The position numbers were made by a program, and so were the translations under genes. Positions 1,589 through 35,667 of a stretch of DNA of 64,000 nt are shown here, piece after piece. Source of the DNA: Myxococcota bacterium (GTDB taxonomy: Bacteria > Myxococcota_A > Polyangia > Nannocystales > Nannocystaceae). The DNA lies in assembly GCA_039028615.1 (NCBI GenBank), contig JBCCHT010000001.1, positions 544,001-608,000 of the forward strand, read 5' to 3'. The notes beneath the pieces are model-generated. The model ran no database searches. It was given only the letters and a program-made list of their open reading frames with translations, and had not been told where the DNA came from. Position 1 is the first letter of the stretch. Each line of letters starts with the position of its first letter.

Positions 1589-2209
1589 ATGGGCAAGTCA
1601 CCGCTTCGCCGTCGCCTCGCCGTAGGCTCCGCCCTGCTCTTCGCCGGCCTGTGCGTCTACGCCTGGTACCGGGGCACGGTCCCCGACGACACCTGGCGCG
1701 AGCCCTCCTCCGCCGACGAGCGCGTCCGCTGCCAGCTCGTCGAGTCCCCGGTCGGCACTCCCGTGCGCTGCGTGGCCTTCGTCGACCTGCCCTCCGCCGC
1801 GCTCATCGAGGCGGTCCGCGACTACGAGTCCTTCCCCGAGATCTTCGATGGTCCCTGGGGCTCCGTGGTGCTGACCAGCATCCAGTCCAAGCCCCCCGAT
1901 CGTGTACACCTCGACGGTCGCGTCGAGGTCCTGGGCGCGCACTGGCCCATCGACATGCACATCGACCACGAGACCACCGACGAAGGATTCGTGGCCGGCT
2001 GGGATGCCCATGACGACGAGGGTCGGGTCAATCGCGGGCGCTGGGTGGTCACCGCCAAGGGAGACGCGACCGCCATCGTCGCCTACGAGCTCGAAGTGCA
2101 AGCGCCGTGGAGTCCCACCTTCTTGGTCAACGACGTGCTGCTGACGCGCATGAAAGACCCGCTGCGGCGGATCATCGAGCACGCGCACGCCGAGCACGAC
2201 GGCGCATGA
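1589..2209 (+). CDS. SRPBCC/START-like (polyketide cyclase-type) protein with N-terminal membrane anchor
   Basis: N-terminal TM helix; AVRDYESFPEIF and NRGRWVV...IVAYELEV patterns resemble SRPBCC; ATGA overlap with next gene. Confidence 0.65.
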   Translation: MGKSPLRRRLAVGSALLFAGLCVYAWYRGTVPDDTWREPSSADERVRCQLVESPVGTPVRCVAFVDLPSAALIEAVRDYESFPEIFDGPWGSVVLTSIQSKPPDRVHLDGRVEVLGAHWPIDMHIDHETTDEGFVAGWDAHDDEGRVNRGRWVVTAKGDATAIVAYELEVQAPWSPTFLVNDVLLTRMKDPLRRIIEHAHAEHDGA

Positions 2210-3015
2210 GCGAGACCACCCTCGTCCCCGTCGCACCGCTCACCGTGGTGCCACAGCCGGGCTGCGTGCGCGTCTTGGCCGGCGAGGACCTGCGCTTCAC
2301 GGTGCGCGGCGAAGGACTCGAGACTTGGTTGCCCGCAGTCTTGGCCGCCCTCGGGCCAGGGGTGTCGGGCACCGAAGCCTCCGCGCATGCTCCCCTCGCT
2401 CAGCGCAACGATGCGCTCGAGATCCTCGCCCGCCTCACCACCGAGCGACTGCTCGTCGAGCAAGCGAGCTCGAAGCCGACCGCCGCCCTCACCGTCGAGG
2501 TCGTCGGTGAGGGGCCCTTGGCGTCGCGCCTGCGCGATCAGCTGCCCGCTCCCGATACGGGCGCTTCGGGTGCCCCCCGGCTGTCCCTCATCGTTCAGAG
2601 CACGCTCGACTACCGCTGGGCCCGCGAGGCTGATCTGCGGGCCGCCTCCGAGGGTCACTGGCGGCTGTGGGTCAGCGATGGCGCGGCGGCCCGCGGCTGG
2701 GTGGGGCCGGTGATGCGCCCCGAAGGCGGCCCCTGCCTCGACTGTCTGCTCACCGCGTTCGAGCGCCTCTCCCCCGAGCCCGAGCTGTGGCGAGCGCTGC
2801 TGGAACACCCGGGCCCCTTCGCCACCTCCACCGTGCCCGAGGCCGCGCGCGACATCCTGTGCCGCATCACCGCCTGGAAGCTCTCGGGGGCGACCGAGTC
2901 CGACGTTCCGGCCGCGGTCCATCGCCTGCACGTGCTCGAGCTGGCGACCTTCGAGGTGAACAGTCACGTCGTGCCGGTCGATCCCGATTGCCCCCGGGAG
3001 CACGCCGCCACATGA
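2206..3015 (+). CDS. TOMM leader-binding / E1(ThiF)-like cyclodehydratase scaffold with N-terminal RRE
   Basis: WVGPVMRPEGGPCLDCL motif, C-terminal HVVPVDPDCP, N-terminal wHTH-like LARLTTERLL; ATGA overlaps on both sides. Confidence 0.8.
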   Translation: MSETTLVPVAPLTVVPQPGCVRVLAGEDLRFTVRGEGLETWLPAVLAALGPGVSGTEASAHAPLAQRNDALEILARLTTERLLVEQASSKPTAALTVEVVGEGPLASRLRDQLPAPDTGASGAPRLSLIVQSTLDYRWAREADLRAASEGHWRLWVSDGAAARGWVGPVMRPEGGPCLDCLLTAFERLSPEPELWRALLEHPGPFATSTVPEAARDILCRITAWKLSGATESDVPAAVHRLHVLELATFEVNSHVVPVDPDCPREHAAT

Positions 3016-4232
3016 GCCGAGCGCTCGAGGCATGGCTGTGCAACCCCTTCACCGGGGCGCTGGTGGCCGAGGGCGAGGTCCCGCGACGCCCCCACGATCC
3101 CGACGTGTTCGTGCATGCGGCCACCGTCGCCCCGCGCGGGCCCCAGCGGCAGGCGCTGGTCGTCGGTGGGGCCGGCTTCACCCCCGAAGCGGCTCGGGGC
3201 GCCGCCCTCGGCGAGGCGATCGAGCGCTTCGAGAGCTGGCCACGACCGAGCGACGGAGCCCTAGCCCGACCGCCCCAAGGCGAGCCCGCCTGGGGCCCCG
3301 ACGATTTCGTGCTGTTTTCGGCGCAGCAGTACGCGGCCGATGGTTTTCCTTTTGCGCCGCCCGACGAAGCCTCGCTGTCGCCCTACGTGTGCGCGCGAAG
3401 GATCGACGACGGCCACCCCGTGTGGATCCCTCAGGCCTTCGTCTACCTCGATGCCCCCGGCGGACACCACGTCGCGCCGATGAGTTCGACCGGCCTTTCC
3501 GCGGGGCCACCGGGACACCCCACCGTGTTGCGCGGCCTCCAAGAAGTCATCGAACGGGACGCGCTGGTGCGGGCGTGGTGGGGCGAGTACGGCATCGAGC
3601 GCTGGGATCCCGAGCTCGTATGGGAGCAGCTCGGTCCCGAGCTCGCTGCCATCGCCCGGCGTCCGAACCTGCGCTACGCCTTCCACCGCATTCGCACGCC
3701 CTACTGCGCGCACGCCTGCGTGGTCACGCTGGTCGGCGAAACGCTCGAGGGCGACTGCCTCAGCGTGGGCTCGGCGTGTCGCGCGACCCGTCGGGAGAGC
3801 CTGACCAAGGCGTTGCTCGAGGCCATCCAGGGGCGGCACTACGTGCGCTATCGAATCTCGCAGGACGACCCCTGGTCGGAGGTCCCCGTGAGCTTCGAAG
3901 AGCACGCGTGCTGGTACAGCCGCTGGCCGGAGCGTTGGGCCGACACCGCGTTCGCGCGTGCCGATGCCGCCTGCGATCCCGACGCGGCCCAGCGCACCGA
4001 TGACCTCGCCGCGCTGCTGGGCGCCCTCGGGCCCGACCACCCCGCCGTCGTGCGCATCGTGACCCCGCCCATCGTGGCCCGCCTCGCCCCGGGGTGGCGC
4101 GTGCTCAAGGTCGTCGTGTCCGGCCTGGTGCCGCTGCACGGCGATCACCGCATGGCCCACCTGGGTGCCGCTCGGTGGCGCAACCGGCCCTTCGAACAAT
4201 GGTTGGCGTATCCACCCCACCCCTTTGCATGA
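3012..4232 (+). CDS. YcaO cyclodehydratase (azoline-forming type)
   Basis: ATP-binding motifs ALGEAIER, SSTGLSAG, GLQEVIERD; Pro-rich C-terminus YPPHPFA. Confidence 0.92.
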   Translation: MSRALEAWLCNPFTGALVAEGEVPRRPHDPDVFVHAATVAPRGPQRQALVVGGAGFTPEAARGAALGEAIERFESWPRPSDGALARPPQGEPAWGPDDFVLFSAQQYAADGFPFAPPDEASLSPYVCARRIDDGHPVWIPQAFVYLDAPGGHHVAPMSSTGLSAGPPGHPTVLRGLQEVIERDALVRAWWGEYGIERWDPELVWEQLGPELAAIARRPNLRYAFHRIRTPYCAHACVVTLVGETLEGDCLSVGSACRATRRESLTKALLEAIQGRHYVRYRISQDDPWSEVPVSFEEHACWYSRWPERWADTAFARADAACDPDAAQRTDDLAALLGALGPDHPAVVRIVTPPIVARLAPGWRVLKVVVSGLVPLHGDHRMAHLGAARWRNRPFEQWLAYPPHPFA

Positions 4233-4245
4233 GCGATGATATGGC

Positions 4246-4977
4246 ATGAGCGTGAAGCGTCCGCGACTTCGCCCGCTGCTGCCCGAGCTCGACCCCACGA
4301 GCTTCCCCGCGTTTCGCGATCGCATCCTCGAAGCCGAAGCCGACGCTCCGAGCCACGCGGTGCGTCGCTATCCCGGCTTCCCGCGCGTCGAGCTGCCGCG
4401 CCCCCGGCATCGCCGGTTGCCTCGCTTCGACGACGTCGTCACCCGACGGCGGACCTGCCGAGCCTTCGAGCCCCGGCTTCCCGACGCGAAAGCCCTTTCG
4501 GCATGGCTGGAGCTCGGCCATGGCGTCACGGGTCCCGATGGTCGGGGACCCACGCCATCGGCCGGCAACCTCCAGGCGGTTCAGCTCGTGCTCGTGCCGC
4601 TGTGTTCCGGTTGGCTCGGCGCCGGGGCCTACCACTACGACCGGGGGCAACACGGGCTCGCACGGATCGGTGACGGAGCCCCCGACTGGAACGAAGTGGT
4701 GCCGTCGCTGAGCCAAGCTCCGGGCGCGCCGTTGCTGGTCGTCATCGCCGGAGAAGAGACCGCGGTCGCGCACAAGTACGGTGAACGCGGGCTGCGGTTC
4801 TTGTTGCTGGAAGCGGGCCAGGTCCTGCAGTCGCTGGGGATGGCCGCGGCTGCTGGAGGCCTCGCCGTGACTCCGATGGGCGGGTTCTTCGAAGGCCAGG
4901 TGCACGCACATACCGGACTGGGCGCGGACGACCTCGTGCTGGCGACCGCCGTGGCGGGGATCCCCGCTCGGCCGTGA
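4246..4977 (+). CDS. SagB/ThcOx-family FMN-dependent azoline dehydrogenase (nitroreductase fold)
   Basis: RRRTCRAF, PTPSAGNL, KYGERGLRFLLLEAG, MGGF motifs; directly follows YcaO. Confidence 0.9.
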   Translation: MSVKRPRLRPLLPELDPTSFPAFRDRILEAEADAPSHAVRRYPGFPRVELPRPRHRRLPRFDDVVTRRRTCRAFEPRLPDAKALSAWLELGHGVTGPDGRGPTPSAGNLQAVQLVLVPLCSGWLGAGAYHYDRGQHGLARIGDGAPDWNEVVPSLSQAPGAPLLVVIAGEETAVAHKYGERGLRFLLLEAGQVLQSLGMAAAAGGLAVTPMGGFFEGQVHAHTGLGADDLVLATAVAGIPARP

Positions 4978-9171: not shown

Positions 9172-11307
9172 TCAGCGCGCCACTCGGCGCACGTTCTGCA
9201 CGTAGGGCAGCCGCTCCAGCCGACTGAGCACGCGCAGCAGCTGCTCGCTCTCCCGAATGTCGAGCGTGGCGATCAGCACCACCGTACCGTCGCGATCTTG
9301 CCCCTCTGCGGCCGCACTGCGCATGTTGACCCCTTCGCGCGTCACCACGTCGGCGATGTCCCGCAACAGGCCCGCCCGGTCGCCGGCCACGACGCGAATG
9401 TCGACCGGGTACGCCTCGCCGACCTTCGCCCCCCAATCGAGGTCCATCAGGCGCTCGGGCTCGGGGTGATTGACGACGTTGGGGCAGTCCCGTCGATGAA
9501 TGATGAGCCCTCGCCCGCGGGTGATGTAGCCGACGACCGCGTCGCCGGGCACGGGATGGCAGCACTTGGCGGGGCTGCTCATCACGTCGTCGACCCCGGC
9601 GATGCTCACCCCCGTGGTCGAGGGGCGAGTGCTGCGGGGCGCCTTGGTGGGGGGCGGCGGAGCCTCGACCTTCTTGCGCTCGCGCTCGGCCTCGAGCAAG
9701 CGGTTGCCGACGTGCTGGGTGCTGATGTCACCGAAGCCGAGCCGTGCCAGGAACTCGGTGGTGTCCTCGGCCCCGCACAGGCTCGCGACCTCGTCGTGCG
9801 AGATGCCATCGACGCCCAAGCGCCGCAGCTCGCGATCGACAAGCTCGCGCCCCTGGGTGATGGAGGTGTCTCGGGCCTGCTGCCGAAAGTAGTGGCGAAT
9901 CTTGGTGCGGGCGCTCGCCGTGTGCGTGTAGCCCAAGTGCGGATTGAGCCAGTCTCGCGAGGGCCGACCGTTCTTGGCGGTGATGATCTCGACGCGGTCG
10001 CCCGTCTGGAGCTGATGGTCGAGCGGCACGATGTGCCCGCCCACCTTGGCCCCGCGACAGCGATGACCCACCTGGGTGTGAATGCGATAGGCGAAGTCGA
10101 TGGGCGTGGCGCCCGAGGGCAGGTCGACGACCTCGCCGCTGGGCGTGAATACGTAGACCTGCTCGCTGAAGACGTCGGCCTTGAGCGACGCGGCGAAGTC
10201 GGCGGGGTCGGTGACCTCCTTTTGCCACTCCATCAGCTGCCGCAGCCAGTTGATCTTCTCGTCGAAGCGGCGGTTGGCCTTGTTGCCCTCTTTGTAGCGC
10301 CAGTGGGCCGCGATGCCGTACTCCGACTCCTCGTGCATCTCGCGGGTGCGGATCTGGACCTCGAGGTTGCGTCCGCCCGGGCCGACCACCGCGGTATGCA
10401 ACGAGCGATAGAAGTTCGACTTGGGCTTGGCGATGTAGTCGTCGAACTCACCCGCGATGGGCTCCCACGAGCCGTGCACGAGACCGAGCACCGCGTAGCA
10501 CTGGCCGAGCTCCTCCACCAACACCCGCACCGCGGAGACGTCGTAGATCTCCTCGAAGCCCAGGCCCTTGCGCTGCATCTTCTTATAGATGCTGTAGATG
10601 TGCTTGGGCCGCCCCATGAGCTCGGCCGGGATGTCGGCCGCCTCGAGCTTGGAGCGCAAGATGCCGATGACCTCTTCGATGGCCGCGCGCCGAGCCGCCC
10701 GCTTCTCGGCCAGCAGCTTGCCCACCTGGCGGTAGGTATCGGGCTCGAGCTGACGAAAGGCCAGATCCTCGAGCTCCCACTTGAGCTGCCAGATCCCCAG
10801 GCGATTGGCCAGCGGAGCGAACACGTCCATCGTCTCGCGAGCCCGCCGCACCCGAACCGGGGCCGGATACTGGTCGACCCGCCGCATGAGGTACGCGCGG
10901 TCGGCCAAGGCGATGAGCACCACGCGAATGTCCGAGGCCATGGCCAAGAACATCTTGCGCAGGTTCTCGGTGGCCTCCTTCTCGAGGGCGTCCCACTGGA
11001 TCTCCTCGAGCTTGTGCACGCCCTCGATGAGGCCGCAAACCTCCGAGCCGTACTCCTCCTCGAGCGGACCGGGCTCCATCGCCTCCTCGAGTCCCGCCAG
11101 GAGGATCCCGGCCGTGATCGTCGAAGCATCGAGGCGCAGATCGAGCAACAAGGTCGCGACCTCGAGCGCCCGCTCCACGATCGGCTCGTCACCGTGCTCC
11201 ACCGTCTGCTCTAGGGCCAAGCACGGTCCCTTGGCGTCCGCGTCCCCGAACAGCTCGAGCAAGCGCGGACTCAGCTCCGAAGCGGTGACCTCGCGGCGAT
11301 CGGCCAT
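9172..11307 (-). CDS. relA: Long RelA/SpoT homologue, (p)ppGpp synthetase with TGS, ZFD and ACT domains
   Basis: APLANRLGIWQLKWELEDL, GRPKHIYSIYKKM, YRSLHT, EVQIRT, TGS (TPIDFAYRIHT), CCHPVPGD, C-terminal ACT; start at ATG 11307 (MADRRE). Confidence 0.95.
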   Translation of the reverse strand: MADRREVTASELSPRLLELFGDADAKGPCLALEQTVEHGDEPIVERALEVATLLLDLRLDASTITAGILLAGLEEAMEPGPLEEEYGSEVCGLIEGVHKLEEIQWDALEKEATENLRKMFLAMASDIRVVLIALADRAYLMRRVDQYPAPVRVRRARETMDVFAPLANRLGIWQLKWELEDLAFRQLEPDTYRQVGKLLAEKRAARRAAIEEVIGILRSKLEAADIPAELMGRPKHIYSIYKKMQRKGLGFEEIYDVSAVRVLVEELGQCYAVLGLVHGSWEPIAGEFDDYIAKPKSNFYRSLHTAVVGPGGRNLEVQIRTREMHEESEYGIAAHWRYKEGNKANRRFDEKINWLRQLMEWQKEVTDPADFAASLKADVFSEQVYVFTPSGEVVDLPSGATPIDFAYRIHTQVGHRCRGAKVGGHIVPLDHQLQTGDRVEIITAKNGRPSRDWLNPHLGYTHTASARTKIRHYFRQQARDTSITQGRELVDRELRRLGVDGISHDEVASLCGAEDTTEFLARLGFGDISTQHVGNRLLEAERERKKVEAPPPPTKAPRSTRPSTTGVSIAGVDDVMSSPAKCCHPVPGDAVVGYITRGRGLIIHRRDCPNVVNHPEPERLMDLDWGAKVGEAYPVDIRVVAGDRAGLLRDIADVVTREGVNMRSAAAEGQDRDGTVVLIATLDIRESEQLLRVLSRLERLPYVQNVRRVAR

Positions 11308-26197: not shown

Positions 26198-27010
26198 TCA
26201 CCGCTGCGACGCGATGTCGTACCTCTTCGCCGGTCGGCGCCACAATCCCACCAGAAGAAGCAACGCCCACGCGCCGCCGAACCGATCACCCGACAGCCCA
26301 CAACTCGCACAACCTCGATCGCTCACTCCGACGTCGGTCTGCCCCCCGTCCCCACCGGAACCCGTCGTGCTCCCCGTGTTCGGGAGGCTGGGCCCGCCGC
26401 TGGTGCTGGTGGATTCTGGCCCCGTGCCGTCGTCACCCGCCACACCGGTCGATCCCACCGTGCCTGCGCCCCCGCTCGAGTCACCGCCCGTCGGCAGGCA
26501 CATCGCCCCCCGCCCCGTCTTCGCGCACTCGAGCGAGCCCTTGCACTGCTCGAGGAAGCGAGACTGGCCGCCGTTGTCGGCACACAGGCGCACAGCTCCA
26601 CGGGAACAGAAGGTCTCTCCCGGCGTGCAGACCTGCGGCTCGCACGTACTGCTGGCGAGGCAGTACTCGCCTCGGCCACAGTGCGCGTCTTCGAGGCAGG
26701 CTTGGCACGTCGAGTCATCGAGGTCGCAGTGGGGCTGCCGCGGCGGGCAATCGGCATCGGTGCGACACGCGAAGATGCACTCGCCATGGCTCGCGCACTG
26801 CATGCCCTCCGTGCAGTGCTCGTCCTCGACGCACTCCTCACAGGTGCCCTCGGGGATGTCGCAATACGGCGCCCAGTCGTTGAAGCAATCCTCGTCCTCG
26901 GTGCAGGGCGGATTGCCGATGTCGAAGATCGGAACGCCCGCGATGGCTGGCGAGGCCGCGACGAACAACGAGCCGCAGTACAGACCGGAGCCGAGCAGGA
27001 GCCTTCTCAT
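26198..27010 (-). CDS. Cys-rich exported protein with MYXO-CTERM-like sorting signal
   Basis: Signal peptide; CxxDxxC repeats; C-terminal GCASC...WALLLLVGLWRR. Confidence 0.7.
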   Translation of the reverse strand: MRRLLLGSGLYCGSLFVAASPAIAGVPIFDIGNPPCTEDEDCFNDWAPYCDIPEGTCEECVEDEHCTEGMQCASHGECIFACRTDADCPPRQPHCDLDDSTCQACLEDAHCGRGEYCLASSTCEPQVCTPGETFCSRGAVRLCADNGGQSRFLEQCKGSLECAKTGRGAMCLPTGGDSSGGAGTVGSTGVAGDDGTGPESTSTSGGPSLPNTGSTTGSGGDGGQTDVGVSDRGCASCGLSGDRFGGAWALLLLVGLWRRPAKRYDIASQR

Positions 27011-27116
27011 CGCTTCATTGAAGCGCAATCGCGTGCCCACGTGAACATGCCGAGGCACTGCGGGCTCGGTTCTCATGGCCGAAATCGCGCTAGCACCCCC
27101 GACGGCGCCGCTCGCA

Positions 27117-28190
27117 TTACTCGGCGGCCGGAGCGGGCGGCCAGACATGGGCAAAACGCTCGCTCAATCGCCCTTCTTCGTGCCCGAACCAGTACGGCGG
27201 TCGGGCCTCGGGGCCGTCATAGATCCGCGCCAACCAGCTGATTCCCCCGCGGCCGACGTAGTGATCGGTGCGGTCGAAGACCGGATCCGCCAGTGCCTCC
27301 GCAAGGCCGACCAGCACCCAGCCACGTTCGCGGAAGTCCGCCAGCACGTCGGCGAGGTGATCGGCCGCCAGTTCGTTGACGTGAAAGAGCACCGTCTGGG
27401 GTGTGTCGGCACCGGTCTCGTGGCGAGCCAGCAGCCGCCCCTGCTCCACCGCCTCGACCATGTGCGTGCGATAGGCCTGCACCACCTCCGCCTTCAGGAC
27501 TTCGTCGCCTTGCGTCATCGCCTCGCGATAGACGAAGGCCAGCAGCCATTCGGTGGTCGCCACCGTGACGTGGGCATTGTCGTAGCCCAGCGCGGCCAGC
27601 CGATCGCGAGCCTCGTCGCGCAGCTGCACCGTGTCCCCCTGGCTGAGGTAGGGGTAGCGAAACCACGTGGGCGGCTGCGGCAGACGGGCGCTGAGCTGCT
27701 CGTGGCAGCGGGCGACGTCGTCCATCCACGCATCCAGCGGCGTGTCGGCCAAGTTGGCGTGGCTGCTGGTGTGGTTGCCCACCACCATGCCCGCCTCGGA
27801 CCACAGCTCCACGCTGCGTTCCTGCGGCCGCAAGCGATCGCAGTTGAAGAATACGGAGGCGGGCGCTTCGAACTCGTGCAAGGTCGCCAGGATCCGCCGA
27901 TTGAGCGCCATGACCTGCTCGGGCGTGGGGCTCGGGCTGCCGCCATCGACATAGGGCGCATCGTCGAAGCTCAGGTGCACGCGCAGCGGGGCCTCGGCGT
28001 CCACGGGGGGCTCGGCGTCGGCTTCGGGCACCACGACGGGCTCCGGCCGCTCCGCGGGGACCGTGCTCGGCGTCGAGCAGCTGGCCACGACCGCCGCGAG
28101 CAACAACACGACGCCCAAGAGGAACCAGCCGTTGGACGCGACGTCACACGGGTCGGTGAATCTCGATCGCATCGGCACACGTCTCGACAT
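27117..28190 (-). CDS. Polysaccharide deacetylase (CE4/NodB fold), exported or lipoprotein
   Basis: LSFDDAP, GNHTSSH, FRYPY, LFHVN motifs; start overlaps the upstream GT gene. Confidence 0.85.
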   Translation of the reverse strand: MSRRVPMRSRFTDPCDVASNGWFLLGVVLLLAAVVASCSTPSTVPAERPEPVVVPEADAEPPVDAEAPLRVHLSFDDAPYVDGGSPSPTPEQVMALNRRILATLHEFEAPASVFFNCDRLRPQERSVELWSEAGMVVGNHTSSHANLADTPLDAWMDDVARCHEQLSARLPQPPTWFRYPYLSQGDTVQLRDEARDRLAALGYDNAHVTVATTEWLLAFVYREAMTQGDEVLKAEVVQAYRTHMVEAVEQGRLLARHETGADTPQTVLFHVNELAADHLADVLADFRERGWVLVGLAEALADPVFDRTDHYVGRGGISWLARIYDGPEARPPYWFGHEEGRLSERFAHVWPPAPAAE

Positions 28191-28977
28191 CGTCGGCGTA
28201 GGTCCCTCGATGGTACCCGAGGCGATAGTTCGCCAGGCAGACCGAGAAGTTGTCGTGCTCGGTGCCCGCGGTGTCGCCCCCCGCTCGCTTCGCGTTGCCG
28301 TGGCTGAGATGCACCACCCGACCCAGCGCCCGTCGCCGCGCCAGCCCGGACAGCTGCAGCCGCGCCACCAGGTCGAGGTCTTCCCAGCCCCAGCCCACCA
28401 GGTCCGAGTTCATGCCGTCGATGGCCTCGAAGTGGTCCCGCTGCAGCACGATGAGCCCGGGGCCGCTGCGGCTACCGTCGTCGAAGCGCAGGCGGTTGGT
28501 CTCGATCCACACCGTCTCGCCCTGCGCGGTCACGAGCCCCACCGCGTTGGCGATGCCCTGCACGCCCTGCACGCCCTGCACGGGGGTCGGCGAGACCTCG
28601 GGGGCCTCGGATTCCACGACCTGCTCGACGGTCACGAACTCACCGCTGGCGACGCGACCGAGCGCCTCGTCGACGAAGTCGGCGTCCAAGATCACGTCGC
28701 AGTCGAGGAAGAACAGGTGCCGCCCGCGAGCGGCGTGCACGCCCAGGTTGAGCGCCAGCGCCTTGTTGAAGCCGTCGGCGGGGACATCGACTCGGGTCAC
28801 GGGCACGGCCAGGTCACGCATCGCGTCGGCCAGCCACTGCTCGTCGCCCGCACAGTTGACGACCACGACCTCCACGCCATGGCGCTCGAAGATCGCCGCG
28901 TTGTCGGCCAGGGTTCGCGGCAGCTCGGCCCGATCGCACCACGGGATGATCACCGACAGCTCGGGGGCCACGGTCAT
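28144..28977 (-). CDS. GT-A fold glycosyltransferase (GT2 with GT7C-like C-terminus)
   Basis: LSVIIP, FNKALALNLG, FFLDCD (DxD), GWGWEDLD, VHLSH. Confidence 0.88.
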   Translation of the reverse strand: MTVAPELSVIIPWCDRAELPRTLADNAAIFERHGVEVVVVNCAGDEQWLADAMRDLAVPVTRVDVPADGFNKALALNLGVHAARGRHLFFLDCDVILDADFVDEALGRVASGEFVTVEQVVESEAPEVSPTPVQGVQGVQGIANAVGLVTAQGETVWIETNRLRFDDGSRSGPGLIVLQRDHFEAIDGMNSDLVGWGWEDLDLVARLQLSGLARRRALGRVVHLSHGNAKRAGGDTAGTEHDNFSVCLANYRLGYHRGTYADDVETCADAIEIHRPV

Positions 28978-30449
28978 GCCGCTGCCCCTCGCTGCTGCGC
29001 GGCGGCAGAGACCAGGAGCAAGCCATCATCGACCAAGCGTTGCAGCGTGTTCCACCGCGCCGTGCCCGGAGTGGCCAGCGAAGCAGCGTGCTGGGGCCCA
29101 GCGCAAGCCTCCACCCAGGGGTCATCCTCGAGGTCCACTGGCAACGCAGCCGGCCACGCGGGGTCGAGCAGTCGAAGCCGTCCGTCGCCCCAGCGCACCA
29201 AAGGAGCGGCCCACCGCACGTGGCTGTCGTCGGTGAGCGTCGGCGCGGCGGTTTCGACATAGCGCGCCACGGGCTCGGCAAACGACTCCCACGCGGGCAC
29301 GGTGGGCGGCAGCAGCGACGGCTCGGCCGACGGCGTGGGCGGTGAAGTCGTCACGATCGTCTCCCCCAAGCCCTGGGCTCGCCTCGCGATGGCGTCCTCG
29401 AAGGCCCGGCACAGAATGTCGGAGCACACCGCCTCCGAGTAGCCGGAGCTGGCGTGCTCGGCCGCGGCCACGCTCATGGCCTCGTGGCGGTCGGCATCGG
29501 ACATGATCCGCACGACCGCGTCGACCCCGGCGTCGGCATCGATGCGGATCCCGCTGCGGGTGATCCACGTGGGCATCAAGGCACCCGTCACCCCGGGCCG
29601 CACGGAGTCCTTGAGGCCACCGTGCGCCGCCCCCACCACGGGGACCCCACAGGCCATCGCTTCTACCGGCACGTAGCCGAAGTTCTCGTCGATTGCGCTG
29701 GTCGGGTGCAGCAACACGTCCATCGCCCCGAAGGCCATGGCCAGCTCCTCGTCGCTCAGGTTGGCGGGAAAGCAGACCAGATCCTCGGCGATCCCCAGCC
29801 GCTGCACGAGGGCCGCGATGTGTTCCCGATACTGGGCGCAGCCGTAGTCGAGCACGGGATAGCTGGTGTGGAAGTTGCCCACCACCAGCGCCACCACCCG
29901 CTGGGGAGCCATCTGCTCCCGGATGCGCGCGAAGGCGCGGAGGAACACGTGCAGGTTCTTCTGCGGCACCAGTCGGCATACGAAGCCCAGCACGTGGTCG
30001 CAGGGCGGAAGCTCGAGCTCCCGACGGCAGTCCCCCTGGTCGTAGGGGGTGAACAGCTCGGTGTCGACGGGCAGGGGCAGGCGCACCAGGTGCGGCGTGG
30101 GTCCCTCGCACAGGTCCTGCATGATCTCGGCGTCGGAGCGGCAGTTGAGCAGCAGCGTATCGTTACGATGCAGGTGCGGGAACCGATCGCGCAAGCCCGC
30201 GTGGCTCACCACCGGGCCCCCGTGCATGGCGAGCACGATGGGCGTATCGGCGGGCCGCGGTTGCGAGAACCACTGCGAGCCGTGAAACGACAAGATGGCA
30301 TCGACCGGTGGCGTGGGCTCGCCTTCGCCGACCGCATCGAGGTCGACCAGCTCGAAGCGTCGACGCAAGGCTCGCTCGTAGAACTTCCGGGTCCGCTCGA
30401 CGCTGACCCACTCGTGGGGGCCGAAGCCCCAAGTGCCAATGCGATGCAT
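28974..30449 (-). CDS. GT-B fold glycosyltransferase (GT4-like) with C-terminal wHTH/RRE-like extension
   Basis: RLVPQKN, DENFGYVPVEAMACGVPVV; C-terminal ...LQRLVDDGLL. Confidence 0.88.
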   Translation of the reverse strand: MHRIGTWGFGPHEWVSVERTRKFYERALRRRFELVDLDAVGEGEPTPPVDAILSFHGSQWFSQPRPADTPIVLAMHGGPVVSHAGLRDRFPHLHRNDTLLLNCRSDAEIMQDLCEGPTPHLVRLPLPVDTELFTPYDQGDCRRELELPPCDHVLGFVCRLVPQKNLHVFLRAFARIREQMAPQRVVALVVGNFHTSYPVLDYGCAQYREHIAALVQRLGIAEDLVCFPANLSDEELAMAFGAMDVLLHPTSAIDENFGYVPVEAMACGVPVVGAAHGGLKDSVRPGVTGALMPTWITRSGIRIDADAGVDAVVRIMSDADRHEAMSVAAAEHASSGYSEAVCSDILCRAFEDAIARRAQGLGETIVTTSPPTPSAEPSLLPPTVPAWESFAEPVARYVETAAPTLTDDSHVRWAAPLVRWGDGRLRLLDPAWPAALPVDLEDDPWVEACAGPQHAASLATPGTARWNTLQRLVDDGLLLVSAAAQQRGAAA

Positions 30450-30461
30450 GCTTTCGTGCTC

Positions 30462-31466
30462 CTATCGGGTGCGGGTCGTGGCCGGCTCGGCCAGCAAGAC
30501 GCGACTGCCCGCGTCATCAAAAACGAACGGGAACTCGGTGTAGGCGGCCAAGTCGCGCCGAATGGCGGATTGATGCTCGGGCGAGGCCACGAGCAACAGA
30601 CAACCCGTACCGCCCGCGCCCAGCAGCTTGCCGCCGAACGCACCTCGAGCGCGCGCCCGGTCGTAGGCCTCGTCCACATGGGCGGGAGAGATGCCGGCCG
30701 TCAGCCTTCGTTTGACCTGCCAGGTCTCGTCGAGCAACGCCCCCAGCTCCGCGACGGGAGCCCGACGGCGCAGGGCGGCCCCGAACGCTTCGCACTGACC
30801 ACGGATGGTGCGCAGGCGCTCGGTCTGATCCGCGCTGGGCTTCGCCAACGGCTTGAGCAGATCCCCCGCCCGCCGCTGCCCGCCGAGATAGAACAGCATC
30901 AACGACGCCTCGAGCTCGTCCCGGTACGCCACGGGAAGCTCCATCGGCCGCGCGTGCACCTGCTCGTCGGGCAAGAAGTGCAGGTTCTGGCAGCCCCCCA
31001 CCGCGGCGATGGTCTGGTCTTGGCGTCCGATCGGCTGCCCCAGGCGATCGGTCTCGAGTCGAAAGGCTCGCTCCGCCAGCGTGCGCCAGTCGGTGGGCTC
31101 TCCCCGCAGCCGAGCCAGCCCGTGCAGCAGCCCCACGCAGAAGCTCGACGACGACCCCAACCCGGTGCCCCCCGGGACGTCGCTCGAGGAGCTGATGTCC
31201 AGCGGCCCCGTCTGGCCCGTCGCACGCAGAGCCTCCCGCACGATCGGGTGCTCGATCGCGTCGATGTGCTCCGCCTCCTCGTACATGCCGCAGGCGATCC
31301 GAAAGCGCGGGCCCGACCCCTCCGGTCGTTGTCGCAGCATCACGTCGATGTGCAGGCCGATCGCCGTCGAGATCACCTCGCCGCCGTGCTCGCGATAAAA
31401 CGACGGCAGGTCGGTCCCGCCGCCCACGAAGCTGGTGCGTAGCGGCGTGCGGGTGACGATCAACAT
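30462..31466 (-). CDS. hddA: D-glycero-alpha-D-manno-heptose-7-phosphate kinase (GHMP family)
   Basis: TPLRTSFVGGGTDLP, PGGTGLGSSS, IGRQDQ, GGKLLGAGGTG; start at ATG 31466. Confidence 0.88.
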   Translation of the reverse strand: MLIVTRTPLRTSFVGGGTDLPSFYREHGGEVISTAIGLHIDVMLRQRPEGSGPRFRIACGMYEEAEHIDAIEHPIVREALRATGQTGPLDISSSSDVPGGTGLGSSSSFCVGLLHGLARLRGEPTDWRTLAERAFRLETDRLGQPIGRQDQTIAAVGGCQNLHFLPDEQVHARPMELPVAYRDELEASLMLFYLGGQRRAGDLLKPLAKPSADQTERLRTIRGQCEAFGAALRRRAPVAELGALLDETWQVKRRLTAGISPAHVDEAYDRARARGAFGGKLLGAGGTGCLLLVASPEHQSAIRRDLAAYTEFPFVFDDAGSRVLLAEPATTRTR

Positions 31467-32782
31467 GCGATCGCCTCCCGGGCCAGCCAGGCCGCGATCG
31501 CGGCGGGAAGATGGGGGAACCACCGAACGCCACGGCGCAGGGCCTCGGACCGAACGCCGTCTCCGAGCAGCAACGGCTCCACACCCGCTCGCATCCCCGC
31601 CTGCGCATCACAGAGGCTGTCGCCGAACATGGCCGAGGTCGCGACGTCGACCCGAAGTTCGCTCATCGCCCGCAGCAGCAGGCCGGGGGCGGGCTTGCGA
31701 CAGTCGCACTCGACCTTGAGTTCGACACGCTCGCCCTCGAAGCCGCGATGGGGATGATGAGGGCAGTAGTAGAGACGATCGAGGTACGCCCCCTCGGCGC
31801 CCAGCTGCCCCTCGAGGCGGGCATGAATCGCGCGCAGCTGCGTCTCGTCGCACATCCCTCGCGCCACGACCGGCTGATTGGTGACCACCACGACCTGCAC
31901 CCCCGCGCGATTGAGCGAACGAATCGCCGAACCGACGCCGGGGAGCAGCTCGATCTGCTCCGGGCGCGAGACATAGCCGACGTGGCGATTGATGGTCCCG
32001 TCGCGATCGAGGAACGCGGTACGCCGCGGCAAGGCAGCGCCCTGCACCAGGCCGCGCTCCCAGTCGTCACAGACCCGCCGATAGCGAGACGGCGTGCCCA
32101 TGTCCTTGAGGTACTCCGAGGTCTCGTAGCCGAAGATCGGCTCTCCGTCCCGATGGGCCCGGGCCAAGATGTCGTGCACCAAGTCGAGCTTGCGACCGGT
32201 GGGCAGCGCCCGGGTGAGCGCCGCGTCGACCACGAAGACCCCCGCGGTGACCAGGTTTCGGACTTCGAGCCCGAGGGGATGGGGCTTGGTGTGCAGCGCG
32301 ACCAGCCGCCCTCGCGGGTCGAGCTCCACCAGGTCGCTGTCGTGGGGGTGATCGTTGGGGTGCACGACCGCGGTCACCCGAGCCTCGTGTCGCCGATGCG
32401 CCTGCACCAAGGCGCGCAGGTCCATCTCGAACACCACGTCACCGAACGCCACCACCCGCGGGCCGTGACCGGGGACCAGCGAGAGGCAGCCTCCCGACCC
32501 CAGCGGCTGCGACTCGACGACGACCTCGACTCGGCAACGCTCGTCCGACCACCCGCGGGCCTGGACCTCGATCACCTCGGATCGGTGCCCGGCCAGGATC
32601 ACGACCCGACCGATACCCGCTCGCCGAAACTGCTCGATCTGACGGGCGATGAGCGGCACGCCGCCGATGGGCAGCATCGGCTTGGGCCGAGCTCGGGCCG
32701 CGTCACCCAGGCGAGTCCCCAGGCCTCCGGCCACGATCACCCCGATGGGGGCGTCCTCGAGTGCGTCACGCGTCGTGTTCAT
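31460..32782 (-). CDS. Fused heptose-1-phosphate nucleotidyltransferase (HddC-like) and heptose bisphosphate phosphatase (GmhB-like HAD)
   Basis: AGGLGTRL...PKPM N-terminal domain; FLDRDGTIN, VVTNQ, CPHHP...CDCRKP, GDS C-terminal domain. Confidence 0.9.
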   Translation of the reverse strand: MNTTRDALEDAPIGVIVAGGLGTRLGDAARARPKPMLPIGGVPLIARQIEQFRRAGIGRVVILAGHRSEVIEVQARGWSDERCRVEVVVESQPLGSGGCLSLVPGHGPRVVAFGDVVFEMDLRALVQAHRRHEARVTAVVHPNDHPHDSDLVELDPRGRLVALHTKPHPLGLEVRNLVTAGVFVVDAALTRALPTGRKLDLVHDILARAHRDGEPIFGYETSEYLKDMGTPSRYRRVCDDWERGLVQGAALPRRTAFLDRDGTINRHVGYVSRPEQIELLPGVGSAIRSLNRAGVQVVVVTNQPVVARGMCDETQLRAIHARLEGQLGAEGAYLDRLYYCPHHPHRGFEGERVELKVECDCRKPAPGLLLRAMSELRVDVATSAMFGDSLCDAQAGMRAGVEPLLLGDGVRSEALRRGVRWFPHLPAAIAAWLAREAIAC

Positions 32783-32791
32783 GGCGAGTCC

Positions 32792-34471
32792 TCAGGCGAC
32801 GGCGAAGACCTGCGCTTGGTACAGGCCGGGCTCCGCGTTCTCGTCGCGTAGCGCCATCAAGGCGTCTTCGATGGGGTCTCGGGTGTGCTCGATGAGCAGC
32901 AGCATCGCCTTGGCGACATCGGCCGGCGGCGTCTCGTGGGGCACGGCGACCCGCAGGCGACCGCGCCCGCGGCTCCATTGCGGCTGCCAGTCGACATAGA
33001 CCCCGCCGAGAAGCTCGCGCACGGGCTCGACCAACGTGGCGATCGTGGTCCGCAGCGGCCGAACCGCCTCGCTCTCGATGTGGATCTCGAGCGTGAAGAT
33101 GGGCTCGGTGTCACCGTAGTCGAGCAGCTCGTAGTGCAGGGCCTGGGGCCACGTGGCGGGCTTGATGTGACGGAAGTGGTGCCGGAATCCCCGAGGGGCG
33201 AGCTCAGCGGGGGCCTGGGCCGCATACGCCTCGAGCACCGCGGCGAACTCCGGCCGCATCGTCGTGGCCTCGGCCGAGGTGAACGCGTGCAACGAAGCCG
33301 GCTCCACCGTCTCCGTCGGCCCCAGCTTTCGACCGTCGAAATCGATGCAGAACTCGGCCCGCTGCTGCGCCGAGGGCATCCACGCCTGTGGGTACGCGGC
33401 CAGCAATCCGGGCAGCAGCGTCAGCGCCCGACGGTAGTGCCCGTAGAACAAGAACTGCTCGGCGAAGGGGCTGCGGGGCAGCCAAGCCGGCATCGCGCGG
33501 TTGATCGCGTTGGCGATGCGCACCATGGCGTTGCGGTGCAACGGCGAGATTTCGTAGCCCATGCCGCCTGCGAATGCGGCGAGCTCGATGTAGTGCCCGG
33601 CCAGGAACACGTGATCCTCGAAGCGATCCGCCACCGCCAGCGTGTCACGCAGCTCCTTGACCAAGCCGCCGGGCGCGACGTCCCGCTCCACCGTGGACCC
33701 GTCCAGGCGATCGAGCACCAGCGCCAGCAGCAGCATCAGGTCGAGCTGCCCGTCGAGGAAGGCCTGCGCCTGCGCCCGGTGGCGCTTCAGCTGCGGAATC
33801 ATGGCCGCCGCCGCGCAGATCCCCTCGGTGAGGTGGACCTTGCGACACACGCGGAAGTGACCGTGGTGATGGCCATCGATGGCCAAGTCCATGATCCCGG
33901 AGACGTCCATGCTGCGACCGGCGAGTTCGAAGCGGGTGTCCGGCTCGACTCCGAGGTGCGCGAGGGCGAAGAGCATGTGCCCCATCTCCGCGCCGTCGTC
34001 GGTCTGAATGGTGCGGCTGCGATCGTAGAGCTGTCGCAGGGTGCACCCGAGCCCGGGAATCTCGTGGTCGAACCCGATCCCCGCCATCGCGGCGTAGGCC
34101 AGGGTCTGGAACGGGTGAAAGTCACCGTCGCGATCGAACTGAACGAGGTAGGGCTCCCCCACCCGCTCGGCCCGGCAGTAGCTGACGAGGCCTTCGGTCA
34201 GCCGATGCCCCCCGACGACCGCGTCTCCCCAGCCGTTGAGGAGGTGGCAGTAGTGCGAGAGCATCGCGCCGTCCATGATCTCGCCCAGTCGTCGCTGCAT
34301 CGCGTCGACCACCAGCGCGTCGGCCTTGGCCGCGGCGGCTTCGTCGAGCGCGGGGGACTCGGCTTCGAGCTGGTCGTAGAAATCCGAGACGGCGTCGGCC
34401 TCGGCGTCGCTCAGCTCGACGGGCCACCACTCCAGGGCGTCGTGATCGTGCTCGTGGTTCGATGTACACAT
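32792..34471 (-). CDS. Hypothetical His-rich protein of about 559 aa in the heptose/peptide operon
   Basis: GAGG RBS before ATG 34471 (MCTSNHEHDHD); tight spacing to neighbours; no family recognised. Confidence 0.75.
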   Translation of the reverse strand: MCTSNHEHDHDALEWWPVELSDAEADAVSDFYDQLEAESPALDEAAAAKADALVVDAMQRRLGEIMDGAMLSHYCHLLNGWGDAVVGGHRLTEGLVSYCRAERVGEPYLVQFDRDGDFHPFQTLAYAAMAGIGFDHEIPGLGCTLRQLYDRSRTIQTDDGAEMGHMLFALAHLGVEPDTRFELAGRSMDVSGIMDLAIDGHHHGHFRVCRKVHLTEGICAAAAMIPQLKRHRAQAQAFLDGQLDLMLLLALVLDRLDGSTVERDVAPGGLVKELRDTLAVADRFEDHVFLAGHYIELAAFAGGMGYEISPLHRNAMVRIANAINRAMPAWLPRSPFAEQFLFYGHYRRALTLLPGLLAAYPQAWMPSAQQRAEFCIDFDGRKLGPTETVEPASLHAFTSAEATTMRPEFAAVLEAYAAQAPAELAPRGFRHHFRHIKPATWPQALHYELLDYGDTEPIFTLEIHIESEAVRPLRTTIATLVEPVRELLGGVYVDWQPQWSRGRGRLRVAVPHETPPADVAKAMLLLIEHTRDPIEDALMALRDENAEPGLYQAQVFAVA

Positions 34472-34481
34472 GGCGAGTTCC

Positions 34482-35084
34482 TCACTGGGCGGCGTTGGCC
34501 GGGCCCTGGGCCATCGCGTGGGCAATGGCGTGGCAGACCACGCTATGGGCGTCTTCGACGCTGAGATAGTCGTGTTGGGGGACGTGCACGCAGATGTCGC
34601 AGGCGGCCGCGAGACGACCTCCGTCGAAGCCCACGAGGCCGACGGTTCGGGCCCCGCGGTCCCGAGCGAGCTCGATGGCGCGTACGCAGTTCTCCGAGTT
34701 CCCCGAGGCCGAGATGGCCAGCACCACATCGCGTGGCTCGAGCGCGGTGAGCTGGCCGGCGAACACGTTCTCGTAGCCCGTGTCGTTGGCCAGCGCGGAG
34801 AAGGTGCTCATGTTGCCGTTGAGGCAGTGCGTGCGCAGGACGGGCGGCAGCCGAGCCGTCACCGCGCTCAAGTCGTTGGCCAGGTGCAGCGCGGTCGTGC
34901 TGCTACCCCCGTTGCCGAACAGGTGGGCCGTGCCCCCCCGGCGCCGGGTCTCGTCCAGCGCATGCACCGTGGCGGCGACTCGATCGGTGGGAACCCGAGC
35001 CAGGAGCTCGGCCACGCTTCGCAGGTGATCGTCGATGACCGACTCGAGGTCGAAGGCGTCAATGGTGGCGGCGTAGGGTTCCAC
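34482..35084 (-). CDS. gmhA: Phosphoheptose (sedoheptulose-7-phosphate) isomerase, SIS domain
   Basis: FGNGGSSTTALH, ALANDTGYENVF, AISASGNSEN, VEDAHSVVCH; start inferred at GTG 35084. Confidence 0.9.
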   Translation of the reverse strand: MEPYAATIDAFDLESVIDDHLRSVAELLARVPTDRVAATVHALDETRRRGGTAHLFGNGGSSTTALHLANDLSAVTARLPPVLRTHCLNGNMSTFSALANDTGYENVFAGQLTALEPRDVVLAISASGNSENCVRAIELARDRGARTVGLVGFDGGRLAAACDICVHVPQHDYLSVEDAHSVVCHAIAHAMAQGPANAAQ

Positions 35085-35194
35085 GGCAGTTTCGATCGTC
35101 GAAGGAGAGGGAGAGGAAGGAAGGGGTGACGACACGGGCCAGCAAGCCAGCCCGCATCGCCACCGATGCCGCACCGAAGCGCGACGATGGGAGC

Positions 35195-35395
35195 TCAGAA
35201 GGGCAGGCCGGGGAGACCGGGGAGGCGACCGATCGGCTGCACGCCGGGCAGGTCGCAGCCAGTGCAGCCCTGCACGCAGCAGCCGGGAACCGGCACGCCA
35301 CGGGCTCCGCCGGTGGCCGACGCCAGGTCGTCCTTGGACAGAGCCTTGCCGGGGGTGCGATTGCGACGCGAGAGAATGCGCTTGCGGTTCTTCAT
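35195..35395 (-). CDS. 66-aa double-glycine-leader precursor peptide (candidate RiPP precursor)
   Basis: GAGG RBS; MKNRKRILSRRNRTPGKALSKDDLASATGG | ARGVPVPGCCVQGCTGCDLPGVQPIGRLPGLPGLPF; LSxxxLxxxxGG matches the double-glycine leader consensus. Confidence 0.8.
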   Translation of the reverse strand: MKNRKRILSRRNRTPGKALSKDDLASATGGARGVPVPGCCVQGCTGCDLPGVQPIGRLPGLPGLPF

Positions 35396-35667
35396 GATGA
35401 TGTTTCCTCGTGGGTGGGCCGCGAGCCTCGTGCTCGCGGCGTGCAACGGGCTAGAGCCCCGAGCTCGGGCTCGGATCATTGGAGCCGGGGGAAAGTCGGC
35501 GCGCATTTCTCACATCCCCCGCCGCACTTTTTCGCGATCCGGTTGCGGTCAGGGGGTTCCCCACTACGTTTCCTGCCGGTTTTTTGGGCCCAGGGGCGGC
35601 ACCTGCTAGCGAACAATTCCCGGGCTCCGTCCCGTGTCCGCGCCCTTTCACGCCCTCGCTCGCCGCC

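Follow-up and report, generated by a model that had tools for sequence, protein, structure and literature searches.

A cysteine-rich peptide gene of a Myxococcota bacterium heads an operon that probably represents a new family of glycosylated RiPPs

The DNA analysed here, a stretch of 64,000 nucleotides from the genome of a Myxococcota bacterium that we term the window, carries an operon headed by the gene of a short peptide. It comprises, besides this precursor, a GmhA-like isomerase, a protein of 559 residues, a nucleotidyltransferase fused to a GmhB-like phosphatase, an HddA-like kinase, two glycosyltransferases (GT4 and GT2) and a deacetylase. All these genes lie on one strand, separated by gaps of about 9-20 nt or by small overlaps. 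The features are as follows.

35195..35395 (-), precursor peptide gene, 66 amino acids; homologues in 64 of 73 loci
35405..35409 (-), GAGGA, likely ribosome-binding site, 9 nt 5' of the ATG (from the sequence)
35324..35359 (-), leader motif R13-T-P-G-K-x-L-x-x-x-D-L24 (from the alignment), predicted enzyme-recognition segment
35306..35311 (-), double glycine G29-G30, predicted transporter cleavage site; GG in 44 of 76 distinct leaders
35255..35284 (-), core G38-C39-C40-V41-Q42-G43-C44-T45-G46-C47; signature G38, C39, Q42, C44
35198..35254 (-), Pro/Gly-rich tail with LPG units, variable and lineage-specific, judging by tail lengths across precursors
34482..35174 (-), GmhA-like SIS sugar-phosphate isomerase (SIS_2 E 6e-19); start uncertain
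32792..34471 (-), 559-residue signature protein, predicted (α/α)6 toroid and CesT/YbjN-like C-terminal domain (model and fold searches)
31460..32782 (-), sugar-1-phosphate nucleotidyltransferase (NTP_transferase E 7e-20) fused to GmhB-like phosphatase (PRK08942 E 1.5e-43, below cut-off)
30462..31466 (-), HddA-like GHMP sugar kinase (NF049969 E 5e-31, below cut-off)
28974..30449 (-), GT4 glycosyltransferase of GT-B fold, with a RRE/PqqD-like C-terminal domain at about residues 400-484 (domain match and model)
28144..28977 (-), GT2/GT7C-like (GT-A) glycosyltransferase with DxD and GWGWED motifs (domain match)
27117..28190 (-), NodB-type deacetylase, apparent lipoprotein signal (by eye), accessory; relative in 18 of 37 wide loci

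The GC content of the cluster is that of the window. A promoter scan found none, and the terminator-like sites (5, against 2.5 +/- 1.5 in shuffles) are not clearly above expectation. At E 1e-4, no paralogue of the peptide, the 559-residue protein, the GT2 or the deacetylase was found in the organism's own genome, where the precursor profile has a single match and no paralogous precursor appears beyond chance. The deacetylase gene is directly followed, at 26198-27154 (-), by one whose product is a repeat protein rich in Cys; its TraA-like match is weak (E 1.4e-8) and falls far short of the cut-off. In related loci it does not recur.

An earlier note on this DNA had described a 66-residue peptide with a basic N-terminal half, a GG, four clustered cysteines, one threonine and an LPG/LPF tail, hidden within a 103-residue ORF call. 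Translation bears this out: the call spans 35195-35506 and encloses the precursor, which is overlapped by longer ORFs on both strands. The only Thr after GG is T45, and the cysteines are spaced C39-C40-x-x-x-C44-x-x-C47. The proposal that this is a RiPP-type precursor is likewise supported, the core being conserved, the leader variable and modifying enzymes adjoining.

To judge by its conservation, the ORF at 35195-35395 (-) is a real gene. In 73 loci picked by the neighbouring 559-residue protein alone, 83 homologous peptides were found, spread over 64 of the loci, which is more than chance, and the loci that harbour them range from 31% to 74% GC. In a short-ORF setting, the strict motif G-C-x-x-Q-x-C was found 78 times in 998 kb of these loci, against 0.49 expected, and six times in the whole genome of 12.27 Mb, a number that includes the true gene; as the motif was derived from the same loci, the control is partly circular. 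The DNA of seven close homologues differs, by eye, by in-frame gaps and many third-position changes. None of the 58 aligned precursors matches Pfam; the 66-residue peptide has no NCBIfam match, and 12 relatives have none below E 0.05. A query with a Pseudoalteromonas locus (L033) matched two contigs, more than 99% alike, in the metatranscriptome of one marine study. The matches, at 9325-9475 and 9570-9927 of the locus, fall on its precursor genes, with none on the remainder of the 5.9-kb stretch; coming from contigs only, where DNA is possible, they are not counted as evidence of expression.

The family was delineated through the 559-residue protein. A first search gave 79 relatives and a wider one 473 at E <=0.001 (representatives at 50% identity), many of them matching by the C-terminal domain only; the alignment led to the 73 loci, 32 from genomes and 41 from metagenomes. 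Named records among them belong to Myxococcota, Bacteroidota, Pseudomonadota and Acidobacteriota, and gene order is shuffled across the loci of these phyla. A precursor HMM, seeded with the peptide of the window, was run over 18,665 short segments until it settled at 80 peptides, and three further precursors sit within longer frames. This makes, with the window, 84 precursors, 76 of them distinct. Of the nine loci devoid of a peptide, seven have less than 1.4 kb upstream of the toroid gene, while the other two, one of them an archaeal bin, have the toroid N-terminal domain only. In that bin, attributed to Micrarchaeota (L038), the toroid stands alone, with neither peptide nor glycosyltransferase within 10 kb upstream.

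Counts of co-occurrence use the 37 wide loci, whose flanks both reach 4.5 kb or more, a redundant set that includes, for example, five Pseudoalteromonas-like and three Kordia loci. A peptide and a GT4 are present in 37/37 and a GT2 in 36/37. GmhA or HddA is found in 25/37, or 30/37 when a gene of the GT9 heptosyltransferase family counts. Less constant are the deacetylase (18/37), a UDP-GlcNAc 2-epimerase-like protein (13/37), a C39 domain (9/37, an undercount at locus edges) and LanB (8/37). Accessory genes are mostly for sugar tailoring: carbamoyl-, methyl- and sulfotransferases, epimerase, deacetylase and DegT. In several loci two or three precursors stand in tandem, and C39 transporters, LanB/LanC and other RiPP genes lie nearby. 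Cultured carriers comprise Pseudoalteromonas luteoviolacea, Enhygromyxa salina, Corallococcus, Chitinophaga, Kordia and Fulvivirga.

Individual loci show variations on this theme. One precursor (L055:2905-3225, +) contains leader and core twice, and the family core closes both copies. In two other loci the precursor is the in-frame 3' end of a GmhB-like ORF (L030:9062-9919 and L066:8185-9921) and would be missed by gene callers. The first of these also encodes, at 1753-4353 (-), about 5.5 kb from the precursor, a protein of 866 residues with the LanB N-terminal domain only, a layout that is presumably that of peptide aminoacyl-tRNA ligases. In two Fulvivirga genomes (L025 and L037) the cluster, which includes a GT9 gene, is preceded by an NRPS module, a β-lactamase-ABC fusion and a thioesterase.

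The cluster is patchily spread. The precursor profile matches 6 of 73 genomes of the host's family, and a full-length toroid is found in the same six; four others match the toroid C-terminal domain only. As sequences from some of these six genomes are part of the precursor and toroid alignments, the informative part is that no orphan peptide was found in the remaining 67. In the family of one Chitinophaga, a match came from the centre genome alone (1 of 251), and the other 250 had no orphan peptide. Across the phylum, a full-length toroid was found in 1 of 401 genomes, the organism's own, and the C-terminal domain only in five. On a quick tree the toroid protein of the window groups with Nannocystaceae and other Myxococcota records, which points to such a myxobacterium as the likely host. 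In the literature searched, largely outside the subscription journals, no description of the precursor or of the cluster was met, and a search on the precursor motif gave no paper; large genome-mining tables may list the cluster.

Conservation is concentrated in a few residues of the core. Among the 76 distinct precursors, with counts anchored on Q-x-C, G38 is kept in 75, C39 in 73, and Q42 and C44 in all; independently, MAFFT has G38, Q42 and C44 invariant in 58/58. A one-residue insertion in one peptide (L054) explains one exception at G38 and one at C39, which leaves two true substitutions of C39, by Thr in L057 and by Ser in L077. Position 40 is Cys in 57, Thr in 16 and Gly in 3; position 41, in the counts listed, is Thr in 56, Val in 6, Asn in 6, Ser in 2, Phe in 2 and Ala in 1; position 45 is Cys in 56. 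The tail after C44 has 1-66 residues (median 12), with two or more LP in only five peptides. CCxxxCxxC followed by LPG repeats, which the earlier note took for the defining architecture, is thus particular to a lineage; Gly38, the invariance of Gln42 and the constant set of enzymes had escaped that note. Its idea that Cys and Thr are acceptor, disulfide or metal sites is supported for Cys, as likely modification and disulfide sites, and is not supported for Thr, T45 not being conserved; the usual Thr of the family is at position 41, which is Val in the window.

Cysteines change in pairs. C40 is accompanied by a late Cys at 45-50 in 57 of 57 peptides and G40 never is (3 of 3), a pattern that amounts to two changes on a quick tree. 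Because C40 is always found with a late Cys and G40 never, this suggests a disulfide between the two, C40-C47 in the peptide of the window. The peptides with T40 form one toroid clade (support 99), with LanB in the locus for seven of eight rows. It is a single event, likely a lanthionine hybrid, and owing to this single origin the replacement by Thr/Ser counts only once. Loci of this clade (L016, L047 and L057, also L046, L049, L054 and L059) combine the cluster with LanB; LanC is present in three of them and radical SAM/SPASM in two.

The glycosyltransferases are the constant partners of the peptide. The model of the GT4 has the GT-B fold, with Z 28 to HepE and 27 to MshA and PimB'; such lists are dominated by the GT-B part and do not address the tail. 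The last 85 residues form strands, then helices, in the model. Their nearest Atlas models include PqqD domains, at a TM of about 0.5, below the bar of the tool, and against a profile of 16 PqqD sequences hhalign gave 34.6% (E 4e-4), with ten control segments at 1.7% or less. We make the moderate call that this tail is probably a degenerate RRE. The GT2, in turn, is similar to chondroitin synthase and β4-galactosyltransferase. The SunS model TIGR04195 is absent from the families matched by 33 cluster GT2s, and its cut-off is exceeded in none of five cluster-bearing genomes and in one of 14 control genomes, so the GT2 is not SunS-like, in keeping with the earlier remark that the cysteine spacing fits no known glycocin.

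Relatives of GmhA, HddA, GmhB and HddC are all present together in the operon, and these four activities make up the GDP-heptose route. Every one of these sugar genes is below its curated cut-off (the GmhA-like isomerase, for instance, has 101 bits against a TIGR00441 cut-off of 209), so the sugar may differ from a standard heptose. Twelve of the 37 wide loci have neither GmhA nor HddA. When five genomes were checked for the two elsewhere, two had both, two GmhA only and one neither: two Chitinophaga genomes, whose clusters have no heptose genes, have adjacent GmhA and HddA relatives at another place; two Fulvivirga genomes have GmhA and no HddA match; and a metagenome bin (G474) has neither with these queries.

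The third constant partner is more enigmatic. The 559-residue protein has no Pfam and no NCBIfam match, and with both toroid alignments a PDB sequence search gave nothing below E 1. Its predicted model is good (pLDDT 94.4), and residues 39-369 form an (α/α)6 toroid. The top fold match is Dfg5/GH76 (Z 14.5, rmsd 4.0, 275 aligned), and within about 1.5 Z of it come GH105/GH88, terpene cyclases, transcobalamin, cellobiose epimerase and AprG. Such values of 13-14.5 are tied among unrelated functions and common for helical proteins; they are no sign of function. Foldseek of the model against the PDB and viral models gave nothing at E <=0.001; among its weak rows (E 0.1-0.3), CesT/YbjN chaperones were aligned with the C-terminal domain, residues 400-540. 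Eleven residues, H76, H119, Q122, H165, C209, H213, E216, H293, E296, H345 and R348, are kept in 51/51 toroid sequences, remote stand-alone homologues included, and in the model the invariant histidines fall at about one per inner helix. We infer that the six histidines and the cysteine form a metal or acid-base centre, probably a metal-binding one. Stand-alone homologues of about 350-410 residues (P0128-P0157) retain the six histidines and Cys209. The C-terminal domain (residues ~400-540), with its own invariants R434, H446, E448, E462, H464 and E466, moves between proteins as a module: it also occurs fused to NucS, PD-(D/E)XK and HSDR_N-like domains.

Several known families were compared with the toroid, and none gave a profile match. 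For LanC there is no Pfam LANC_like match and hhalign gives 0.1% against only five LanC sequences; the fold is shared, with GCR2 at Z 9.4. For AGE/cellobiose 2-epimerases there is again no Pfam match, with hhalign at 0.2% against only four sequences and tied fold values (Z 12.3-13.2). Thioester domains have a profile probability of 0.1% (six templates, one of them mis-extracted) and Z 10.3-11.5. Searches of the organism's own genome for thioester-domain and prenyltransferase families found none, the prenyltransferase control being silent. The toroid is apparently an enzyme of no known family.

As for the leader, the motif between R13 and L24 is common to myxobacterial and Acidobacteria-like members of the alignment, and GG, which is not universal, lies within the last 25 leader residues in 44 of the 76 distinct precursors. 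No C39 peptidase-transporter is encoded in the window, as had been remarked together with the corollary that cleavage at GG would act in trans or not occur. A search of the genome gives this idea a predicted candidate. Three C39 domains lie outside the window; the transporter on contig C18 is the genome's best match to those flanking four related clusters, and its 50-57% identity to them makes action in trans on the precursor plausible. This transporter is found at C18:214226-218394 (-) with an HlyD-like adaptor and a protein of 311 residues that resembles, by eye, an ATP-grasp ligase. A second candidate RiPP cluster, likewise beyond the window, is seen at C1:732204-732623 (-), where two short ORFs share a CKCH motif and have leaders of the double-Gly type. 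They lie downstream of a 503-residue ORF, with a C39 transporter at a distance of about 4 kb.

A conserved peptide beside two glycosyltransferases and a toroid, in several phyla, is likely to be a previously undescribed sugar-decorated peptide. What the sequences and models establish is the peptide family, the residues that it keeps invariant, the genes that occur with it and the domain families of these genes; the steps that follow are inferred. There is very little doubt, in our judgement, that the peptide is the substrate of the cluster; its glycosylation is highly probable, and the sugar is likely to be a heptose. As a whole, we moderately favour a new family of glycosylated RiPPs in which an RRE-bearing GT4 S-heptosylates a core Cys, the GT2 adds a second sugar and the toroid carries out a step at Gln42 or the sugar. 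The GmhA-like isomerase, HddA-like kinase, GmhB-like phosphatase and nucleotidyltransferase would make an NDP-heptose, probably GDP-D-glycero-α-D-manno-heptose. The GT4 would bind the leader through its RRE-like tail and move the sugar to Cys39 or Cys44; the GT2 would place its sugar on the first one or on the other Cys. Glycocin glycosyltransferases S-glycosylate Cys (see PMC11912497), and the GT-B enzyme LmbT performs S-glycosylation with a GDP-octose, according to PMC12945683. The toroid, probably with a bound metal, would take the step that defines the family, most probably on the invariant Gln42 or on the sugar already attached. C40 and the late Cys (C47) would form a disulfide, the peptidase-transporter encoded on C18 would cut after GG and export the product, which may serve in antagonism or signalling, and the Pro/Gly tail would be a variable follower. 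Three invariant side chains (C39, Q42, C44) face three constant proteins (GT4, GT2, toroid). The two substitutions of C39 do not mark it as the acceptor; in the LanB/LanC clade, which includes L057, a thioether could replace a C39-C44 disulfide.

The alternative that survives best, unlikely though we hold it to be, is also a glyco-RiPP, with all four cysteines bridged (C39-C44 and C40-C45/47) and the glycan N-linked to the side-chain amide of Gln42. In the LanB/LanC clade the bridges would be thioethers, and Gln42 would be the sole invariant side chain left. The invariance of Q42 and C44 fits this view, as do the even cysteine counts of the commonest types (four in GCCxQGCC peptides and in the type of the window, two in the G40 type) and the fact that Thr/Ser stand for C39/C40 in T40-type peptides only, those of the LanB clade. 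However, this clade has one origin and is one event, the accessible portion of PMC11912497 lists no characterised RiPP glycosyltransferase acting on Gln, and the toroid would be left with no obvious peptide substrate.

Another reading, decidedly improbable, has the toroid make Gln42 an acyl donor, with Cys209/His213 acting in a transglutaminase-like manner, so as to give a Cys39-Gln42 thiolactone or a Gln42-sugar bond. The parallel would be complement C3/α2-macroglobulin, and the product a glyco-macrocycle or a reactive peptide. The core G-C-x-x-Q has indeed the spacing of the GCGEQ thioester motif (as given in PMC3274692), three members read G-C-G-T-Q, C209 and H213 are invariant, and thioester domains share the toroid fold. 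Yet Glu is never found at 41 in the counts listed, while GCGEQ and all five correctly extracted myxobacterial domains (GCFEQ) have it; thioester domains give no profile match and have Z values below those of glycoside hydrolases; and C39 is missing in two members.

We also give little credit to the view that the peptide is a scaffold or sulfur donor. A sugar would then be assembled on its Cys, tailored and set free as a small thio-sugar, and the toroid would be a sugar epimerase, transaldolase, transglycosidase or lyase. The top toroid fold matches are mostly carbohydrate enzymes (Dfg5/GH76, GH105/GH88, cellobiose epimerase, the transaldolase AprG), the accessory genes mostly tailor sugars, and the cassette parallels lincosamide biosynthesis. 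K211, invariant in 70/70 close homologues, may be set beside the Schiff base through which AprG acts (described in PMC13707489), but it is lost in 22/41 remote ones; GG leaders, C39 transporters and HlyD adaptors suggest that the peptide itself is exported, and the paired Cys changes suggest a folded product. Heptose genes and GT2/GT4 enzymes are common in envelope operons, and vicinal Cys pairs are able to bind metals. An unglycosylated Cys-rich metal-binding or regulatory peptide, by chance inside a surface-polysaccharide or LPS operon, is nevertheless very improbable: a metal sponge would hardly need an invariant Gln and variable leaders, the tail of the GT4 resembles an RRE, the cluster is patchy (6/73 and 1/251 genomes), and neither the 13 listed families of recurring neighbours nor the 112 neighbours scanned included a gene of Wzx/Wzy type. 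Finally, a chance ORF in GC-rich DNA, as shortness, overlapping longer ORFs on both strands and absent proteomic support might intimate, is refuted already by the conservation of homologues across phyla, in loci of contrasted GC content, and by the motif control.

If the preferred S-heptosylation holds, the family would add to known systems a donor of heptose type, a GT4 guided by the leader and, as the enzyme that defines the class, a toroid for which Pfam, NCBIfam and PDB sequences offer no relative. A leader-directed heptosyltransferase would be a tool for peptide glyco-engineering, and the short core and small enzyme set make direct testing by co-expression feasible. Chemistry of the toroid at Gln, once confirmed, would make this a new RiPP class. 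We hold unlikely its full form, where the toroid acts on the invariant Gln of a peptide heptosylated by the RRE-bearing GT4, to yield a Cys-Gln thiolactone or a Gln-to-heptose bridge; if true, a genetically encoded glyco-macrocycle or a complement-like covalent warhead would exist in four bacterial phyla.

What appears from these sequences is a patchily spread, apparently undescribed family of glyco-RiPPs whose central enzyme belongs to no known family. In outline it is like the glycocins (sublancin, thurandacin, glycocin F), which, according to PMC11912497 and PMC9576775, are made from a ribosomal precursor that has several Cys and in many cases a GG leader, with a glycosyltransferase in the cluster, Cys S-glycosylation (here predicted) and disulfides. 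In contrast with them, it has two glycosyltransferases, a GT4 with an RRE-like tail and a GT2 with no SunS match, a dedicated heptose-type cassette, an obligatory toroid protein and a conserved core of 7-10 residues with an invariant Gln; and while PMC9576775 cites ten glycocins, all of Bacillota origin, the family is found here in Gram-negative phyla. As the SunS test failed, we do not file it as a glycocin.

Cacaoidin, with its disaccharide on Tyr, NAI-112, pseudomycoidin, the davasins and glycosylated thiopeptides also bear a sugar on a ribosomal peptide, and the accessible portion of PMC11912497 names no heptose for them. There the sugar tailors another class of RiPP, whereas the constant part of the new family is its glycosyltransferases and toroid. 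Like the glyco-lanthipeptides, one clade has LanB/LanC. The operon of the window, which lacks both, is not a class I lanthipeptide cluster, and the eight wide loci with LanB mostly belong to that clade. With C3/α2-macroglobulin the family shares the G-C-x-x-Q spacing and an (α/α)6 toroid within the same system, but here motif and toroid are separate polypeptides, with no Glu before Gln and no profile homology.

As in the GDP-D-glycero-α-D-manno-heptose pathway of capsules and S-layers, the operon has relatives of GmhA, HddA, GmhB and HddC. It differs in that these are below cut-offs, that nucleotidyltransferase and phosphatase are fused and that the predicted acceptor is a small peptide. LmbN, LmbP, LmbK and LmbO of lincosamide biosynthesis resemble, respectively, GmhA, HddA, GmhB and HddC. 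The thio-octose pathway, as presented in PMC12945683, likewise has a higher sugar activated with GDP and, to act on a thiol, an S-glycosyltransferase of GT-B fold. This enzyme, LmbT, comes at rank 40 (Z 18.6) for the model of the GT4; its acceptor is ergothioneine, whereas that predicted for the new family is a peptide.
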